A stretch of DNA of 64,000 nucleotides from Candidatus Enterousia sp. (GCA_045645645.1 JAZRJE010000020.1:2249-66248), one strand, 5' to 3'; shown: positions 50,710 to 58,384, counted from the first letter of the stretch. Made by a program: numbers and translations. The notes: generated by a model from the letters alone, not told the origin.

Positions 50710-50952
50710 ATGTATATCGAAAGTCATTTGATAGAAGGTTCGTTGGGTTTGGCAACAAATGATACTGTTGTTGCTGATGTTGTACCAAATGAAGAAAAGT
50801 ATGTTGAACCTGTTTTCGACAGTACAATTATTGATACCCCAGCAGAGGTGCGTACACCATCTTCTGAATGTTTGCGTTGCGCGTATAATGCATTCGCTGA
50901 TAGCTTGGGTTGTGTAAGTTCTTTTGGATTATGTCCATATTTGGTACGCTAA
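50710..50952 (+). CDS. 80-aa hypothetical protein with an acidic N-terminal part and a Cys-rich C-terminus
   Basis: AAGGA lies 9 nt upstream of the ATG at 50710. MYIESHLIEGSLGLATNDTVVADVVPNEEKYVEPVFDSTIIDTPAEVRTPSSECLRCAYNAFADSLGCVSSFGLCPYLVR. Confidence 0.45.
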   Translation: MYIESHLIEGSLGLATNDTVVADVVPNEEKYVEPVFDSTIIDTPAEVRTPSSECLRCAYNAFADSLGCVSSFGLCPYLVR

Positions 50953-51033
50953 TGGGGTTATTGTTATTTTTTGGATAAAAATATAATTTTTACCTTGCAT
51001 TTTGAATAAAATGCTATAAAATAACAGTCCGTT

Positions 51034-51110
51034 GCATCCATAGCTTAACTGGATAAAGCATCTGACTACGGATCAGAAGACTGAGGGTTCGAATCCTTCT
51101 GGATGCGCCA
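51034..51110 (+). tRNA. tRNA-Arg (anticodon ACG), CCA encoded
   Basis: I folded the cloverleaf by hand: acceptor GCATCCA/TGGATGC, D-stem GCTT/AAGC, anticodon stem TCTGA/TCAGA with loop CTACGGA, T-arm GAGGG-TTCGAAT-CCTTC, discriminator G, CCA. Total 77 nt. Confidence 0.92.
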
Positions 51111-52652
51111 CTTCTTTATTTCTCCCACATTTTCATCAAAAATATTGAAAATCGGCGCCAATTTTGGTGTTCCAAATTTTTCTGCAAAATCATATGAAAT
51201 TTGCTCAGGAAAACACAAGTTTAGAACACCCTGCCGTTTTTTGAAGTTCCCTGTGCGCCAAATATCCAATGGTCTGCGTATAAACTGCAAAACATATTCC
51301 GTTGCCTGGTCAAGTGGCATTGTCTCTATTTCCTGCACCTGCTGTTCATCGTTCAGTTGCTGTATCTGCGCCGTCAGCATGCTGATGCGTTCTTGGCACA
51401 TTGAAACAACCTCTGGTGGATTATTCGGGGTCATTAACAAATTGAATGCCTGGGTCTTTTCACGTTCTTTCTGCGCAATCAATGCTTGTCGTTCCGCAAC
51501 ACGCTGCTGCAAATCCGCTGTTTGTTCCTCATAAGCCCGTTGAATTGCACGCCCAGCCAGCGCAATAAAGCGCTGGTCTGGGGTTATTTTTTCCAAAATA
51601 CATTCCAAGTCTTGGTGTATTTCGTCTGGTTTTATGCCTTTGCCATACATGGGACAACCCTTGCAATAACAATGATAATACAAAAAGCGCTTGCCGCCTT
51701 TGCCTTTTGGGCGACTGGCGGTCAATGGCTTTCCGCATTTTGCACACTGAACAAAGCGGCGCAATGGGAATGTTTCATCTTCGGTATTATATTGCCGCGT
51801 CACCTTTTCATTCATGCGACCACCGTTCAGGCGTTCCTGAATGGCACGATATGTTTCCACTGAAATCAACGGTTCCATCGCCCATTTCTGGTATGGAATC
51901 CCCCATCGGGGATAAGCAAAGTATCCCGTATATTTTTCATTGGTTAACAGATTATGTATCGCATTATAGGTCAAACGAAACGGTCGCCCATCCCTGTAAA
52001 GACATAACGGCTTATCCCGCAAATATTCAAACACATCCCGTTGGGTCAGAAATCGGCACGATGCAAAGCCTTCCAGCGCAGTTTGAATAAATGTCGCTGT
52101 CGGTTCATTGCGCACCTGGTGCATGCGCCCATTCTTGCGAACTTCTTTTAAGCCCACAGGTGGCCGCATAACCCAAAAGCCCTGTTTGGCATGCTCAATC
52201 ATGTTGTTTTTCGTGCGCCCCGCATTTTTTTTACGTTCATATTGACTTAATGCTGCTGACACATTTTCCAGTAGTTCGCTTTCATCTGTATCCTCCAGCG
52301 TCATATTCACGGTTTGCAGCGAATGCCCCATTTTGCGAATTTGTTCACGCAAAATGCCATGAACAACCACATCACGAGCAAATCGGTTCAAATCAAATGC
52401 CAAGACAATATAATTCTGGTCTGTTTCGGACAAGAATTTCAGCATTTCATTAAACGCTGGCCTGTCTTGCTTTGCCCCCGAAACACCAGGTTCCATAAAC
52501 ACGCGGTCCACAGGCAGTCCTCGTTGCCTTGCCCATGCACGGCATGTTTGTTCTTGACTGTCCAGGCCTTGGCCATCTGTCACCTGGCGGCGGCTGGACA
52601 CACGACAGTAAATAACAACCCTTTTGGGGGATTCTTGGTTTAATTTAGGCAT
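51066..52652 (-). CDS. Large serine recombinase (integrase); its last 15 codons are encoded by the complement of the tRNA-Arg gene
   Basis: GGAG SD. Resolvase-type N-terminus VVIYCRVSSRRQVTDGQGLDSQ...LAFDLNRFARD. Recombinase domain, Zn-ribbon CAKCGK...CYCKGC and a coiled coil. The C-terminus ...EIKKWRIQKDSNPQSSDP reads through 51110-51066. Confidence 0.88.
   Translation of the reverse strand: MPKLNQESPKRVVIYCRVSSRRQVTDGQGLDSQEQTCRAWARQRGLPVDRVFMEPGVSGAKQDRPAFNEMLKFLSETDQNYIVLAFDLNRFARDVVVHGILREQIRKMGHSLQTVNMTLEDTDESELLENVSAALSQYERKKNAGRTKNNMIEHAKQGFWVMRPPVGLKEVRKNGRMHQVRNEPTATFIQTALEGFASCRFLTQRDVFEYLRDKPLCLYRDGRPFRLTYNAIHNLLTNEKYTGYFAYPRWGIPYQKWAMEPLISVETYRAIQERLNGGRMNEKVTRQYNTEDETFPLRRFVQCAKCGKPLTASRPKGKGGKRFLYYHCYCKGCPMYGKGIKPDEIHQDLECILEKITPDQRFIALAGRAIQRAYEEQTADLQQRVAERQALIAQKEREKTQAFNLLMTPNNPPEVVSMCQERISMLTAQIQQLNDEQQVQEIETMPLDQATEYVLQFIRRPLDIWRTGNFKKRQGVLNLCFPEQISYDFAEKFGTPKLAPIFNIFDENVGEIKKWRIQKDSNPQSSDP
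51104..51111 (+). repeat. Left copy of the 8-bp junction repeat TGCGCCAC (putative attL core)
   Basis: Identical 8-mer at 57766-57773. Confidence 0.5.
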
Positions 52653-52752
52653 TTTTTACTCCTTTTTTGGCCTTAAAGCGTCATGTAGGACGCCATTTAT
52701 AATCTGTGTCAGATGCCCCATTATTTCATGCACCTGTTGGTCTGTAAGGGCA

Positions 52753-52935
52753 TTATTTAATGCACCCAAACATTCCCTGCATTCCGCAAGCGATAGCAAA
52801 GCCATAACACAAATCTTTGTATTGGATTCGTGCTCTGGCGTATCCAGTCGCAGAATGAGCGGTTAATTGGTTGGCGATAGTTCTGGCATATCCAGTCACT
52901 ATTGCCAACAAGTTTAATATGTTGTTTTTAGCCAT
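52753..52935 (-). CDS. 60-aa hypothetical ORF (island)
   Basis: GGAGGTG SD. Its ATG overlaps the stop of the upstream ORF (ATGGCTAA). It contains the two palindromic sites, so coding status is uncertain. Confidence 0.35.
   Translation of the reverse strand: MAKNNILNLLAIVTGYARTIANQLTAHSATGYARARIQYKDLCYGFAIACGMQGMFGCIK
52835..52847. promoter_or_regulatory. 13-bp palindrome CTGGCGTATCCAG (operator-like), copy 1
   Basis: CTGG-N5-CCAG. A second copy, CTGGCATATCCAG, lies 48 bp away. Both lie 180-245 bp upstream of the recombinase start. Confidence 0.4.
52883..52895. promoter_or_regulatory. 13-bp palindrome CTGGCATATCCAG (operator-like), copy 2
   Basis: It sits in the 18-bp direct repeat TCTGGC(G/A)TATCCAGTC(G/A)C shared with copy 1. 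Confidence 0.4.
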
Positions 52936-53680
52936 TTAACACCTCCGTTGACTTAACAACATCGGACACAACACGGCCATTTTGGTATTTTATAACCCGT
53001 TCGCCAAACAGCGGATTTTCACCGCCGTCTGTTTCCGTGTATATTCGATTGCGTTCGGGTTCAATTTTCACTTTCTTAATGCCAGCCTGGCACAAACGCT
53101 GCGCAATCTTGCGTGGCAGTTCCAAAAAGCATTCCGCACCAAATTGAACAACCTTTTGCATTGCGCATTCATCGTTCAAAACACGCCCCAGGTTCACAAT
53201 CGTATGTGAATAGGTGTAATTGTCGCCATCAGCAACGATTGCTGGTAAATCATGCGCCAGGCACAGCCCAACACAATTATTGCCGTCAATCACCATGAAT
53301 GGCCTTTCATCCAATGCCAAACAATCGGCACGACATGCCAAAACTGCGAATTGCAGCATGCTGATATCACGATACATTGGCATGTCCAGGATTTTGAAAA
53401 TGCTTTTTATGCTTTCCAATCCCAGACCACGGCATTTCAGCACAAAGCCAATGCCTGCCCGTGCCACGTCCAGGGCGCTGATGCGTTCCTTATTTGGTTC
53501 GGCAATCAGTCCCCGTTTATGCCAATCGTTTAAGACACTGGCGGTTAAATCATCAAAATCCACATCATGCGCTGGATTTAGCAATTTAACCAGTTGATGT
53601 TCCATGACCTTTTCTGCGAATGCATCAAAGGTTGCGTGTGTTTGCAAACTAATAAGTTCGTTTTTTATAAAGTTCCCCAT
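52928..53680 (-). CDS. Hypothetical protein (island), possible MerR-like HTH near the N-terminus
   Basis: 250-aa ORF. LNDWHKRGLIAEPNKERISALDVARAGIGFVLKCRGLGLESIKSIFKIL resembles the MerR-type helix-turn-helix/wing pattern. The resemblance is weak. Confidence 0.4.
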   Translation of the reverse strand: MGNFIKNELISLQTHATFDAFAEKVMEHQLVKLLNPAHDVDFDDLTASVLNDWHKRGLIAEPNKERISALDVARAGIGFVLKCRGLGLESIKSIFKILDMPMYRDISMLQFAVLACRADCLALDERPFMVIDGNNCVGLCLAHDLPAIVADGDNYTYSHTIVNLGRVLNDECAMQKVVQFGAECFLELPRKIAQRLCQAGIKKVKIEPERNRIYTETDGGENPLFGERVIKYQNGRVVSDVVKSTEVLNG

Positions 53681-53803
53681 TTTTTTATCCTTTTGGTTTT
53701 GGGGTTAGCAACAGTTGCCGGACACACATCATTGTTTGTCCGGATTATTGCTCTCGACTGAATCGTGAGTCAAATCACATTTCACTCCGCAATGCAGCCG
53801 ACA

Positions 53804-53840
53804 TAAAAAAAGCCCGTGCGGACATTCACACCGCACAGGC
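53804..53840 (-). terminator. Rho-independent terminator (minus strand) inside the island
   Basis: On the minus strand: GCCTGTGCGG-loop-CCGCACGGGC followed by TTTTTTT. Confidence 0.6.
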
Positions 53841-53895
53841 CTCATAATCATTTATCTTTTTCGTATCACTCTTTGGGAAACTATTTTATTTTGAA

Positions 53896-53923
53896 CAAAA
53901 AAACACTGCCATAAATGGCAGTT
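53896..53923 (-). terminator. Rho-independent terminator (minus strand) inside the island
   Basis: On the minus strand: ACTGCCA-TTTA-TGGCAGT followed by GTTTTTTT. Confidence 0.55.
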
Positions 53924-53938
53924 CTTATAACTCTTTAT

Positions 53939-54127
53939 CCGAATCTTAATCACGAATCATAATAAACGAATCATAAACTAAAAACGAAAAGTGTAGAATT
54001 CCCCTTATATGAATTTTCATTCATGCTCCGATGAATCGTTAAATTGCCACTCTTTTGTTTTTGTTCATTTACACTCCTTATGAATCGTATCCGAATCATA
54101 ATGAAATATCCGCAATCCGAATCAGAA
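53939..54127 (+). repeat. Iteron-like array of GAATC-core direct repeats
   Basis: GAATC at 53941, 53954, 53968, 54033, 54082, 54093 and 54119, all on the same strand, plus an inverted copy at about 54190. Three copies share [AC]CGAATCATAA. Confidence 0.7.
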
Positions 54128-54446
54128 CAATCTCACCAAAGCCTTGCTGGACTTGGGATTGCGTGATTTTAGCATAAAATAAAAAAAGCGATTCGTCAAG
54201 CCCCAATGCCAGTTTTTTTGTCCATTGGACTTTTGGTTTTATTGGTGTTAAACTAGGAAATGAATCCAAGGGATTGGGTTCGGGGCTGTAGCAGGCCTTC
54301 TTGTTCGGTGCGAAAGCATCGTTAAATTGATGTTTCGGTGTTTTTTGCACCGTTATAACCCCGCATTGGTCGGGGAGCTGTGTGTTATACAACAGGGGCA
54401 ACCCAAAGACCACGGAATCAATAACAAGATGATTGCTAACTCCCCG

Positions 54447-54474
54447 ACCGCCATTCCGTTGGCGGTTATTTTTT
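54447..54474 (+). terminator. Intrinsic terminator/attenuator hairpin 17 nt upstream of a start codon
   Basis: ACCGCCA-TTCCGT-TGGCGGT followed by TATTTTTT. It overlaps an alternative 10-bp pairing, GGTCGGGGAG (54368-54377) with CTCCCCGACC (54440-54449). Confidence 0.5.
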
Positions 54475-54490
54475 GCGAAATGGGGAATAT

Positions 54491-55054
54491 ATGACACCGG
54501 AATATGTGCTATTTTTGTTAAAACAAGCGATTTGTAGTTTTTATGAACACGACCACAAATTGCTAGAGATTGCTGCACATGAGCGGGCGTGTGTTTCTAG
54601 AGTTGCAATTTATTTACAGCAATTATTAAACAAGGAACCCGATGCCAAAAATCTTTGCGTTGATTGCGACTATGGCAGTATGACAACCGATACAGGAGAA
54701 AAGTTCAAAAAATATATGGATGCAAATGGCGCATATGGAGGGGATGATGGGCAGTATGGGCGCATTTTTCCAGATTTAATCATTCATGAACGTGGAACAC
54801 AGCAAAACAATCTGTTAGTTGCCGAATTCAAGGGATATTGGCACACAGGCACATGGGGACAAGACCAAACGAAACTTGAACGCCTAACAGACAGGGCGCC
54901 TTCATTGAACCTCAAACCGTATTTTTGTTATCAGCATGGTGTGTTTATTGCACTGGGGCGACGACAAGCATATTTCGTTGAATTTGAAAACGGACAACAA
55001 ATATCAACCACAGCCACCATTGATGAACTATGCAAACGAAAGGAAAACCTGTGA
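54491..55054 (+). CDS. Hypothetical protein with a PD-(D/E)xK nuclease-like motif (island)
   Basis: GGGGA SD before the ATG at 54491 (the ORF-track start 54473 is TTG). RIFPDLIIHERGTQQNNLLVAEFKGYW fits the PD...E.K pattern. Confidence 0.4.
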   Translation: MTPEYVLFLLKQAICSFYEHDHKLLEIAAHERACVSRVAIYLQQLLNKEPDAKNLCVDCDYGSMTTDTGEKFKKYMDANGAYGGDDGQYGRIFPDLIIHERGTQQNNLLVAEFKGYWHTGTWGQDQTKLERLTDRAPSLNLKPYFCYQHGVFIALGRRQAYFVEFENGQQISTTATIDELCKRKENL

Positions 55055-55920
55055 ATAAGCCCATCTTAATTCTTGGAATGTTTATACTAACCGGGTGTGC
55101 CACACTAAGCAAAGAGGCGGTTGAAGCGCAGCGATTAACACAAAGCCCCGACTTGATAGAGGCGCTAAGAATATATACTGGAACAAATCCAACATATTGC
55201 AAAGAATATTGCGCCACACGGTCCTGGTGGTGTCAAACCGATTGCGAGCGTGATTCAAAAGATGCGCTTGCATTCAAAGACCAGAGTATAAATTATGATT
55301 GTTTGGACAAAAGCGAATATCAAATATATCGCACGGACGAGTGCGTCTTGTATCGGCGTGGGGTTCGCACATCGAAAATTAATTATTTTGATTTTAGCCG
55401 CTTTATTCCGCAAGACAGCCATATAAAAACAGAAGACGATTTTGTTGCTGTATCCAATAAGTTCCGTTCATTGAAATCAAAACTAGAAGCCTGCCAGAGC
55501 CAGAAAGAAAAAACAACCGCTGAAAAAAATGCATGCCAAGATGCGCTTTTAAGGCCGATTATTCGTTTTTCTGAACATGGGATACAACCATGCAAAGAGG
55601 TGTTAAGCACAGAATACCAAGCAATGTTAAAAAGCCAGGTTTCATGGTTTGAATGGGCGACCCACCATGACCCAAAAGAAAACATAGACACGTGCCTAGA
55701 TGCATATCGGCCACTTGTAAGCCAACTGAGCGCCCTGGGGCAAATGTATTCGGCCCGACAGATTGCGTCATATTGCACAAATATGCCAGAAAGCCCCATT
55801 TATAGTAAAAGTGAGGCGGTAGAAAAAATTCGGAAAACGGTGGAGCAGTTTGGTAAAGATAATTTTTGCGACACAAAAGACCACAATACCGAACTGAAAA
55901 AACTGGGACTAAATATATAG
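55051..55920 (+). CDS. Cys-rich lipoprotein (island cargo)
   Basis: GTGA start/stop overlap at 55051-55054. VNKPILILGMFILTGC lipobox. Multiple Cys. Confidence 0.6.
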   Translation: MNKPILILGMFILTGCATLSKEAVEAQRLTQSPDLIEALRIYTGTNPTYCKEYCATRSWWCQTDCERDSKDALAFKDQSINYDCLDKSEYQIYRTDECVLYRRGVRTSKINYFDFSRFIPQDSHIKTEDDFVAVSNKFRSLKSKLEACQSQKEKTTAEKNACQDALLRPIIRFSEHGIQPCKEVLSTEYQAMLKSQVSWFEWATHHDPKENIDTCLDAYRPLVSQLSALGQMYSARQIASYCTNMPESPIYSKSEAVEKIRKTVEQFGKDNFCDTKDHNTELKKLGLNI

Positions 55921-55928
55921 GACAAAAC

Positions 55929-56477
55929 ATGAAATTTAATTTGATATTTTTGCTGTTTTTGCTTTGTTCGTGTGTACAGTCGAATGAACAAAGTGTCATA
56001 AACGAAGTAGAAAAGACCACAGGTGTTGTTGACATTGTACAACAAGAACACGTGGACAACAAATTAAAACGTGTGCAACGCATGAATCATGAGCGGGGTC
56101 ACTGCATGGAATTATTCCCAAACGAATACCAAACCATGCTAGAAAGAACTCAAAGTTATTACGAAAGCCAAATGAGAAGCCATGAACATGAATTTTCTAG
56201 ATGTAAAGCGGCAAACCGGTGCATATTTTTACCAAGTGGCGAAAATATCACTGCTCCCGAATTAAAATCTAAATGTAAGGGGATGTGTGAACTTCAAGTC
56301 CCAACAGCAGAACAAATACTTGAGTCCGTAAAAGAGAGCATGCATAACTTTGCCCAATATCGTAAGTGTTCAACCGATGGCTGGGAGTCAGAGGTGCTAA
56401 AATACATTTGTCCGTGCGACGTATGCTACGACACGCCAATTTGTGCCCCGAATGCCCCAGTCCCAGCGCAAAAATAA
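55929..56477 (+). CDS. Cys-rich lipoprotein (island cargo)
   Basis: ATG at 55929. MKFNLIFLLFLLCSC lipobox. Multiple Cys, including CPCDVCYDTPIC. Confidence 0.6.
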   Translation: MKFNLIFLLFLLCSCVQSNEQSVINEVEKTTGVVDIVQQEHVDNKLKRVQRMNHERGHCMELFPNEYQTMLERTQSYYESQMRSHEHEFSRCKAANRCIFLPSGENITAPELKSKCKGMCELQVPTAEQILESVKESMHNFAQYRKCSTDGWESEVLKYICPCDVCYDTPICAPNAPVPAQK

Positions 56478-56857
56478 TTAAACACGCTGTCGAGCCACGA
56501 CAATGCGTTTGTCGCATATAGTATATAACACAACACCATGGCACAGGTGTATAATCCATATCCTATATCCATCATGCCAGTCCATATACCTGTCTACCAT
56601 ACCCCCACCCCCATGTGTGGGGTTAGAAGCGAGGGCAGGATAATAAGAATGCTTTTTTACAAATAATGGTTGCATTTCATTTTTACCGTGATATACATAT
56701 TTATGTCTCGTGGCAGGACACGCCGTTCGTGCAAAGACCAAGGTCATACCACCCAGCATAATATTAACCTATGGTGATGTTTATCTGGACAAAAATTTAC
56801 GAACTTCCAAAAAAATACAGATAATCAGCACCGAATAACAGAAATAAGGATAATATT

Positions 56858-57493
56858 ATGAATAATTTAAGTGTTTTTCAATCCCAAGCAAAACAATTAT
56901 TAAAAGACTTTAACGCTGGCAAGCCATTTGCATTAAACCGTGTTGCCGTGTATATTCACGACACAAGCAAATTCAGTTTAATGAAGGCGCAACATGTCAT
57001 TGCCAAAGAACAGGGATTCAATTCATGGGCCGAACTTACAAAGGACACGCCTGAGCATTTGGCGCTTGTAAAACAAATGATGAAATATCCCACATTAACA
57101 AGTTCTGGCTTCCTGCAACGCAACTTCAAAAAAACATATGCCGAATGGAAAAAAGAGTTTGATGAAGACCGTGCAGAATTATTTTCCACAGGCACAATAT
57201 GCAGCAACATTTTATCCAATTATGATATCGTGTTGAAAATTGCGGATTGGTTGCGCAAAAACATAGAGCCAATAAAAACACAAAATTTGCGTCACACAAG
57301 TTATGGTCATAAACATAGAATGGAACGCATGTTTGACCGAACTGAACCGCACCATGTGTATGTATCAAATGGTGTTTTCATAGCCGCCGCAATTTTGGCT
57401 GGTTTTATCCCTAAACCCCATGGCATTAACTGCACATTTAACATGAGTGAGCGCAGCTGGCAAACTGCATATAAAAAATTCAAAATGTATTAA
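56858..57493 (+). CDS. Hypothetical protein (island)
   Basis: 211-aa ORF preceded by AAGGA; no motif I can name. Confidence 0.5.
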   Translation: MNNLSVFQSQAKQLLKDFNAGKPFALNRVAVYIHDTSKFSLMKAQHVIAKEQGFNSWAELTKDTPEHLALVKQMMKYPTLTSSGFLQRNFKKTYAEWKKEFDEDRAELFSTGTICSNILSNYDIVLKIADWLRKNIEPIKTQNLRHTSYGHKHRMERMFDRTEPHHVYVSNGVFIAAAILAGFIPKPHGINCTFNMSERSWQTAYKKFKMY

Positions 57494-57765
57494 AGTCCAT
57501 AAATGCGCCGTTAAATCACAGTCCCAGAAAAAAAGAATGCTTTTTTCATGGGGCCCCAGTGCAAAAATGCACCAGGACCAGCATGAATTTTTATCACATG
57601 GTCATATGTTCTAATCTCTCTTTGTGGTAATATTCACATGTTTTGGGCTTTTTGCCTGTTGGGCATAGGTTTGCCGCACATCATCCAAAAGTCCCGCAGC
57701 GCAAATATATTCGGCGCTTTTCACGATTTCGGCATGCAAAATTTTCCAATGATTTAAGATATTAG

Positions 57766-57773
57766 TGCGCCAC
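57766..57773 (+). repeat. Right copy of the 8-bp junction repeat TGCGCCAC (putative attR core)
   Basis: Identical to 51104-51111; base composition shifts just to the right. Confidence 0.5.
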
Positions 57774-57780
57774 GAATTTA

Positions 57781-57805
57781 ATACCGCCTTTTGGCGGTGT
57801 TTTTA
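57781..57805. terminator. Bidirectional Rho-independent terminator (tdk, and presumably the original tRNA-Arg terminator)
   Basis: ACCGCC-TTTT-GGCGGT followed by GTTTTTATTTTT. Confidence 0.75.
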
Positions 57806-58384
57806 TTTTTTCTTTTGATTGATACCATGATATAGCATGTTGTAATGTTGGCGACATACCGATTTATAATTACTGTCACCAAGGGCAAATTGATTGCCTG
57901 CACGAATAACGTTGTCGTTTTTATCAAAGCGCAAGTGATGTGTGGCTAATTCCATACAGCCATTTATTTGACAATTTGATTCGTGCAGATGCAGTTCTGC
58001 ACCGACTTCAATTAAACGACGTGATGCTGGAAATATCTGTTCATTGCTGTCACACATCAATCCATAGCACATTACAGTTATGTTTAAAATGTCGGCAATT
58101 TGTACCAGTTTATCAATGTCTCTCGGAGAGAAAAATTGCACTTCATCAACTAATATTACGCGTGTGTTTGGGCTGGGGGTATATGTTTCTAAATTCGGTA
58201 TCGCAATAGCTTTTGTTTCAATGCCGATTCGGGATTTTACAGTGTCTTCAGAAAAACGTGTGTCGAATGATGGTTTGATAACTTCGGTTTTTACGCCGTT
58301 TTGATTATAATTATAAGCATTAATAATTAAAAGTGCTGATTTGGAACTGCTCATTACGCCATAATGAAAATGTAATGTGGCCAT
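57803..58384 (-). CDS. tdk: Thymidine kinase
   Basis: LHFHYGVMSSSKSALLI (P-loop region), ILVDEVQFF, C-terminal CQINGC...CRQHY Zn-ribbon-like Cys. Confidence 0.85.
   Translation of the reverse strand: MATLHFHYGVMSSSKSALLIINAYNYNQNGVKTEVIKPSFDTRFSEDTVKSRIGIETKAIAIPNLETYTPSPNTRVILVDEVQFFSPRDIDKLVQIADILNITVMCYGLMCDSNEQIFPASRRLIEVGAELHLHESNCQINGCMELATHHLRFDKNDNVIRAGNQFALGDSNYKSVCRQHYNMLYHGINQKKK

Follow-up and report, generated by a model that had tools for sequence, protein, structure and literature searches.

An attachment site that lies within the gene of the recombinase acting on it was previously known only for tyrosine integrases, namely those of phage Mx8 and of the SSV1 type. In Mx8, the phage attachment site (attP) is located within the integrase coding sequence, and integration gives a recombinant gene with a new 3′ end (intP becomes intX), the altered integrase being still active with changed properties (PMC6070905, PMC4383910). 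The SSV1-type archaeal integrases of Sulfolobus viruses and Thermococcales elements have their recombination site inside the open reading frame (ORF), use tRNA genes as targets and are partitioned on integration (PMC7253208). Here, we focus on a 64,000-nucleotide stretch of DNA (GCA_045645645.1 JAZRJE010000020.1:2249-66248), termed the window, from the genome (0.92 Mb in 22 contigs) of a Candidatus Enterousia sp., a gut alphaproteobacterium. The window carries an integrated island at a tRNA-Arg(ACG) gene, and the large serine recombinase (LSR) encoded by this island has a gene that spans attP; integration swaps a selected 51-residue C-terminal tail for 12 residues encoded by the antisense strand of the tRNA.

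As in Mx8, the crossover site lies inside the integrase gene and integration changes the end of that gene. Unlike the situation here, however, the Mx8 integrase is a tyrosine recombinase, whereas the window encodes an LSR in which the swapped part is predicted to lie at the LSR-specific coiled-coil control region. The SSV1-type enzymes are tyrosine recombinases that are split into two large parts and inactivated; in the window the loss is limited to the last 51 codons, and after integration an almost full-length ORF, complete in its domains, is still in place. The comparison with SSV1 made in a preliminary description of this DNA is apt as an analogy, and Mx8 IntP/IntX stands nearer. The window recombinase matches this group in layout and, lacking the tyrosine fold, is not a member of it. 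In domain set and in fold, it resembles SPbeta SprA and the Bxb1, phiC31 and Listeria A118/LI integrases, which work with separate directionality factors; the few bases shared by its short attachment (att) sites are consistent with this group. To our knowledge, attP lies outside the int gene in the phage-type serine integrases studied so far, their targets are protein-coding genes or intergenic sites, and none has been reported to change its own C-terminus on integration. According to the Islander paper of 2014, targeting of tRNA genes was not known among serine integrases (PMC4383910), and our full-text searches of the literature outside subscription journals returned no serine integrase with attP inside its gene and no tRNA-targeting LSR clade.

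The recombinase ORF occupies 51066-52652 on the minus strand and encodes 528 amino acids (aa), with the C-terminus ...GEIKKWRIQKDSNPQSSDP before the stop. Its Resolvase, Recombinase and zinc-ribbon domains, four invariant cysteines and the fold match of the modelled homologue P0018 identify it as an LSR, a serine and not a tyrosine recombinase. The body of the protein (residues 1-516, 51105-52652) comprises the Resolvase catalytic domain (Pfam PF00239, E 1.1e-27, residues 12-158), followed by the Recombinase domain, which is the first DNA-binding domain (DBD1; PF07508, 28.1 bits against a cutoff of 21.1, residues 189-276), a four-cysteine zinc ribbon (DBD2), a coiled coil and post-coiled-coil helices. 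The motif I-Y-C-R-V-S-S is near-invariant in alignments A1 and A2. The zinc-ribbon family PF13408 scores 18 bits, under its cutoff of 25.3; the cysteines C303, C306, C328 and C333 are invariant in A1, and the AlphaFold2 (AF2) model of P0018, which is 55% identical, has beta strands at 300-327. In the same model the coiled coil is formed by helices 359-406 and 411-439. Foldseek ranks the full-length integrases of SPbeta, Bxb1 and phiC31 highest for this model (E 1e-16 to 1e-12), and the LI integrase is also matched. All catalytic and DNA-binding domains are retained in the integrated isoform. The nearest public copies of the recombinase come from metagenome-assembled genomes of Candidatus Enterousia, gut Alphaproteobacteria.

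The target is the tRNA-Arg(ACG) gene at 51034-51110 on the plus strand, the only tRNA that ARAGORN finds; it is intact, its CCA is encoded, and it shares 80-94% identity with tRNAs of the same genus. It forms the left part of the bacterial attachment site (attB). The preliminary description had proposed that the recombinase ORF crosses the attachment junction and that its last 15 codons are the complement of the tRNA, and the coordinates agree: the final 15 codons, stop included, are the complement of the 3′ part of the tRNA (51066-51110). The ...DSN... peptide of the recombinase is the tRNA T-loop in reverse and W515-R516 is the complement of GCGCCA; W515 is invariant in A1, and its codon in the window is the complement of the tRNA's CCA. 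The tail of the integrated isoform (51066-51104, minus strand; IQKDSNPQSSDP plus stop) derives from this tRNA antisense and is, as read from the sequence, a by-product of the target. Odd conserved recombinase C-termini in automated annotation, for example ...WRAQKDSNPQPSDP, arise because they are tRNA antisense.

The left attachment core (attL) is TGCGCCAC at 51104-51111, made up of the last 7 nt of the tRNA and 1 further nt; on the minus strand it runs from the third base of K514 through the codons for W515 and R516 into the first base of the codon after them. The same 8 bp recur at 57766-57773 as the right core (attR). This 8-mer occurs six times in the window, against 2.2 expected, and is not significant alone. 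The junction is instead fixed by empty sites in same-genus genomes without the island (L004 and L005), where ...GGATGCGCCAC runs straight into GAATT[TC].. and on to a hairpin with a T-run, equivalent to window position 51111 joined to 57774. In a Logan contig of a different sample, 51111 is followed by GAATTCAAAC and then 57783. Since attL and attR differ in the sequence flanking the core on either side, the crossover is placed inside the 8 bp, where the preliminary description had put it. These comparisons define the island as 51112-57773 (6,662 bp), with the crossover within the 8-bp core and the tRNA left intact; the GC shift and a sister copy in a second genome, G103, give the same picture. 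The island contains the recombinase, a 49-aa gene, cargo and the split-off tail codons. The core shared by attL and attR is 8 bp here and 6-13 bp in other islands. In attP and attB as rebuilt, no clear dyad symmetry emerges; matches reach no more than 9 of 22 positions, which is uninformative. A second, inverted copy of attP was sought within the island without success: the best inverted repeat related to the ends measures 24 nt at 71%, and the joined ends have no counterpart when up to 3 mismatches are allowed.

Read from 57772 on the minus strand in the recombinase frame, the right end of the island gives WRTNILNHWKILHAEIVKSAEYICAAGLLDDVRQTYAQQAKSPKHVNITTKRD, that is, W-R and 51 further codons up to a TAG stop at 57613-57611. 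The translation agrees with the continuation described previously, and the joined gene of an excised island would encode 567 aa where the integrated gene encodes 528. Chance alone gives an open run of at least 52 codons with P = 0.06 when the region is dinucleotide-shuffled, and with P = 0.22 at a position drawn at random from this gene-dense window. The open frame alone is unremarkable; its coding nature is supported by homology and selection.

The first line of such evidence is P0018 (574 aa, contig L025), in which the tail is contiguous with the recombinase and the next gene is not a tRNA. After W-R this protein reads TTISKNPNAWCDEIIKMAEYIGDSSLLD..., and BLASTP aligns it to the window tail with 44% identity over 34 aa (E 9e-7). 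The second comes from ten other integrated islands, whose LSRs are 34-97% identical to that of the window and whose targets are tRNA-Arg(ACG), Arg(TCT), Thr(TGT) and Thr(GGT). When the second core upstream of the LSR is translated in the LSR frame, all ten display the tail motif W-N-x-[FIL]-x2-E-I-x3-A-x2-I-x2-S-G-[IL]-L. A profile hidden Markov model built from the tails of nine other islands and P0018, with the window and the G103 sister copy left out, matches only the minus-strand stop-to-stop segment 57802-57614 among 1842 six-frame segments (E 5e-12; next best 0.077). The impression that the extension is protein-like is borne out by these matches, and equally by substitution patterns.

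The tail divides into a conserved part of 31 codons (57680-57772, minus strand; WRTNILNHWKILHAEIVKSAEYICAAGLLDD), which is predicted to form a helix docking on the recombinase, and a variable end of 22 codons plus the TAG stop (57611-57679, minus strand) with near-neutral evolution. The LSR of G103 is 97% identical to that of this genome (G000); over the first 31 tail codons, the two genomes show 0, 1 and 7 changes at codon positions 1, 2 and 3. The ratio of nonsynonymous to synonymous divergence (omega) is 0.042 for these codons, 0.037 for the LSR body and 0.82 for the last 22 codons. In two further island pairs, omega for tail and body is 0.087 versus 0.121 and 0.087 versus 0.11, and the pooled tail changes comprise 22 synonymous and 9 nonsynonymous. 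A plus-strand ORF of 40 codons (57643-57765) overlaps the tail region, and it cannot explain the pattern because the variable third positions are its second positions. Conservation extends 90 nt past the core, further than a 25-bp attP half-site. The tail emerges from these comparisons as a real coding sequence kept by selection, its first 31 codons constrained like the LSR body.

Sequence comparison establishes the layout as common to a large clade of tRNA-targeting serine recombinases. Approximately 45 of the 48 best homologues end in W-R-[AT]-QKDSNPQ[PS]SDP or similar, which is tRNA antisense, because those homologues too sit in tRNA genes. At 64 of 91 related loci, drawn from many phyla, the LSR ORF ends inside a tRNA on the opposite strand; 23 tRNA gene types are represented by anticodon, and the number of ORF codons lying within the tRNA ranges from 3 to 72. 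Many of the remaining loci have G[FILV]EP-like T-loop peptide ends. Homologues that do not adjoin a tRNA carry a contiguous extension (P0018 and P0022, and the more distant P0066, P0078, P0090, P0093, P0106 and P0121), the last six having ...S-W-N-x-[FL]... tails. The motif W-N-x-[FIL] is found in both split tails and contiguous relatives of ~30% identity, and the tail is taken to be ancestral to the clade because distant relatives that do not adjoin tRNAs possess it. The question of which C-terminus homologues align with is answered by this distribution: relatives outside tRNAs carry the extension, and the tRNA-antisense ends belong to copies inserted in tRNA genes. Among the sampled genomes of the genus, 26 of 201, this one included, encode an LSR homologue at E 1e-30 or better. 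IMG/VR yielded only three distant relatives, which lack a tRNA and have uninformative tails.

Structural prediction gives the tail a definite position. In the AF2 model of P0018 it forms two helices, 521-537 and 540-562, with a predicted local distance difference test (pLDDT) score of 83-85 over 521-550, 62 over 551-560 and below 50 after 560. When residues 290-516 of the window recombinase (P0001) are predicted in complex with tail residues 3-53, the interface score ipSAE is 0.61, compared with 0.00 for the best of three controls; contact agreement across the runs is at least 68% and partner pLDDT at least 59. The confident contacts link tail residues 5-35 to 444-479 and 499-504, in the post-coiled-coil helices of DBD2, and to 369-377, at the start of the outgoing coiled-coil helix. 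By prediction, the tail lies at the control point of serine integrases, between the zinc-ribbon domain and the base of the coiled coil. In the SPbeta integrase, directionality is set at the hinge between DBD2 and the coiled coil, which is the site of the recombination directionality factor (RDF; PMC11722253). Fusions of integrase and RDF switch directionality via intra-subunit contacts (PMC5737554).

Immediately upstream of the recombinase, and ending 4 nt before its start, is a 49-aa gene (52656-52805, minus strand). It shares 33% identity with the equivalent ORF of L025 (E 1e-10), and tblastn locates it just upstream of the LSR in ten further loci, in which the LSR is as little as 34% identical; neither Pfam nor PHROGs gives a match for it. 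This position and conservation make it a candidate directionality factor, or a regulator or cofactor.

The explanation that we consider probable overall is that the island's attP core lies inside its own LSR gene and that the tail is swapped on integration, both of which the sequence comparisons show, with a possible effect on the properties of the two isoforms. In the free form, the core would lie 51 codons before the natural stop of a continuous gene of 567 aa, and the last 51 residues would open with a conserved helix of ~30 residues, W-N-x-[FIL]...E-I...A..I..S-G-[IL]-L. Integration cuts the gene at W515-R516 and leaves the tail codons 6.6 kb away at the other end of the island, and the integrated gene reads 12 tRNA-antisense codons in place of the tail, giving 528 aa. 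Because the tail is predicted to pack where RDFs act in the serine integrases studied, with its helix between DBD2 and the coiled-coil base, the isoforms would differ in the restraint of the coiled coil. That the swap alters this restraint, and hence directionality or the response to a cofactor, is suggested by the models and in our estimate has slightly less than an even chance. Control of directionality by an isoform swap, as first proposed for this locus, is plausible on these models. Integration would fall to the full-length free form, whose groove would be filled and which may thus be insensitive to a directionality factor; the tail-less integrated form would be able to carry out excision or be switched to it, possibly with the 49-aa neighbour as cofactor. 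The recombination state of the DNA would in this way be written into the enzyme. A specific version, in which the tail fills the groove between DBD2 and the coiled-coil base, making the free form a factor-blind integrase, while the tail-less form takes the 49-aa protein or needs no factor and excises, is tentative and in our estimation rather unlikely. There is a likeness to the engineered integrase-RDF fusions (Olorunniji et al. 2017; PMC5737554), where an attached polypeptide acts within the same subunit and sets directionality; unlike those artificial fusions of a separate RDF, the tail here is natural and is added or removed by recombination itself, so that any comparable effect would be by analogy.

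Several points weigh against this explanation. No back-joint of 57773 to 51112 is present in Logan contigs of four sets (X1, X2, X4 and X5), and scans of metagenome and viral contigs with a degenerate attP-junction pattern gave 0 matches. The contigs L025 and L026, on which the recombinase has its contiguous form, are short and linear, and could represent junctions in tandem arrays instead of free circles. The profile match in the window depends on training tails selected with a permissive motif that was itself based in part on this window, a choice that has no bearing on P0018's contiguous tail or on the omega values. The ipSAE of 0.61 comes from a prediction in which both partners are halves of the same protein, a situation that favours a pass, and because our own alignments were used its calibration applies only roughly; there, the 0.61 mark is attained by 58 of 80 complexes of solved structure and by 2 of 110 mismatched pairs. 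Finally, we infer the direction of any isoform effect from models.

The strongest rival is a neutral swap, in which attP overlaps the gene's 3′ end within a compact element, the tail only stabilises the C-terminal domain, the two isoforms obey identical rules of directionality, and control lies elsewhere, in expression level or in a separate factor. The integrated isoform does retain every catalytic and DNA-binding domain, the conserved 49-aa neighbour could provide all directionality control, and the tRNA-derived tail, varying between 3 and 72 codons over the family, therefore has no function of its own. Yet the tail proper is constrained as strongly as the enzyme body and is kept in relatives of ~30% identity, and its predicted site, the base of the coiled coil, is a known control point (PMC11722253), so that loss without consequence seems unlikely. 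We regard a neutral swap as doubtful, though better placed than the other alternatives.

Integration might also be suicidal, the removal of the tail inactivating or destabilising the recombinase and locking the island in, as proposed for SSV-type integrases of Thermococcales. This would agree with the prediction that the removed helix packs into the C-terminal domain, with the recovered copies being nearly all integrated, and with the failure to find a circle in the Logan contigs or the junction pattern scans. What the Logan sets do contain are contigs resembling an empty site and loose ends that read GAATT[CT]AAA after 51111, perhaps from other Enterousia strains; unitigs of the island start at 51082, the k=31 branch point for 51112; and these contig data neither support nor contradict excision. 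The contigs with the contiguous form (L025, L026 and L063) show no terminal overlap as a sign of circularity. Suicide is opposed by purifying selection on the split tail codons (omega 0.04-0.09) and by recombinase ORFs that are intact in all integrated copies examined. It is also opposed by mobility. G103 carries the same island in the same tRNA with different cargo, and synonymous divergence (dS) between G000 and G103 is 0.32-0.52 for island genes (LSR 0.38, tail 0.48) and 0.86-1.6 for the flanking host genes. Since island dS is below that of the host flanks, the island moved after the hosts diverged, and its synonymous divergence, 2-4x less than that of the flanks, implies repeated passage through the joined form. 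Such movement, as read from these divergences, fits selection on the joined gene. Suicidal integration is accordingly a distinctly improbable account, although a form of it with rescue in trans by a related element is conceivable.

The least credible account, which we hold to be very improbable indeed, is that the ORF naturally ends in or close to the tRNA, the 8-bp repeat is due to chance and the open frame 57611-57773 is non-coding or under DNA-level or antisense constraint: the six copies of the 8-mer, the open-frame probability of 0.06-0.22 and the overlapping plus-strand ORF would permit it, but the empty sites put the junction exactly at the core, the profile match and the contiguous tails of relatives indicate coding, and the 0/1/7 distribution of substitutions in the minus frame is accompanied by conservation 90 nt past the core.

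With the swap of a selected tail as the preferred explanation, further features of the locus can be set beside it. A third plus-strand copy of TGCGCCAC, at 55210-55217, opens a 44-codon in-frame stretch from WRNIL; it is probably due to chance, because the tail profile gives no match there. Beyond attR, the chromosomal sequence that follows the tRNA in the empty sites (57774-57811, plus strand) consists of GAATTTAAT, the hairpin ACCGCC-TTTT-GGCGGT and a T-run, in this order, with the same layout in L004 and L005. It reads as the tRNA terminator, its T-run overlapping the stop codon of the convergent tk gene (57803-58384; Pfam TK). A terminator-like hairpin and T-run at 57780-57815 has short matches (84-90% identity) on many related-genome contigs, and is probably a terminator type common in the genus. 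In at least 12 same-genus genomes (L002-L024), tk lies directly upstream of the tRNA-Arg and is co-oriented with it; in the window, as in G103, it is placed downstream of the island in convergent orientation. Relative to tk, the unit made up of the tRNA promoter, the tRNA, the island and the terminator is thus inverted. The inversion breakpoints fall in T-rich stretches at ~50974 and ~57800, not at the att core, and a direct repeat, D1, is found at them (50947-50972 and 57786-57811).

The cargo itself has matches in Pfam and PHROGs that are weak or of unknown function: DUF1836 at E 1e-3, and phrog_9576 and phrog_17839 for a 211-aa protein. In G103, 1.9 kb of the window (54474-56409) is replaced by 4.7 kb of other cargo (L107), with both ends ~83% conserved. 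From the comparison of these two copies, the island can be described as a cargo-swapping platform.

Other members of the family show related traces of rearrangement. The tails at L030:327-545 and L032:7146-7313 are near-identical (nonsynonymous divergence, dN, 0.083), while the recombinase bodies are far more diverged (dN 0.315), and the two islands target different tRNAs, Arg-ACG and Arg-TCT. This contrast suggests that island ends are exchanged between elements, for example via tandem arrays. In genome G181 (L108/L029), the 10-nt core ahead of the tail is itself preceded, at a distance of 165 nt, by a 20-nt copy of the tRNA 3′ end whose T-loop reading is broken (8190 and 8355 in LSR-oriented coordinates of L108); this copy looks like a relic of an earlier or tandem insertion. 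The 5567-bp contig L026, which encodes P0022, a contiguous recombinase of 582 aa with its tail, also encodes a reverse transcriptase (RVT_1) and an HNH protein; these may represent cargo of a retron-like or defensive kind.

For inserting large DNA into genomes, serine integrases are the principal tools, and structural work continues on what decides between integration and excision in these enzymes. The clade to which the Candidatus Enterousia recombinase belongs targets tRNA genes, something not known of serine integrases according to the 2014 paper (PMC4383910), and recombination adds or takes away a conserved helix that is predicted to lie beside the coiled-coil hinge. If the two isoforms differ in directionality, they would constitute a natural one-protein switch. 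Should the tail indeed plug the groove at the coiled-coil base, the state into which recombination has put the enzyme's gene would decide directionality for all the tRNA-targeting serine integrases of this clade.

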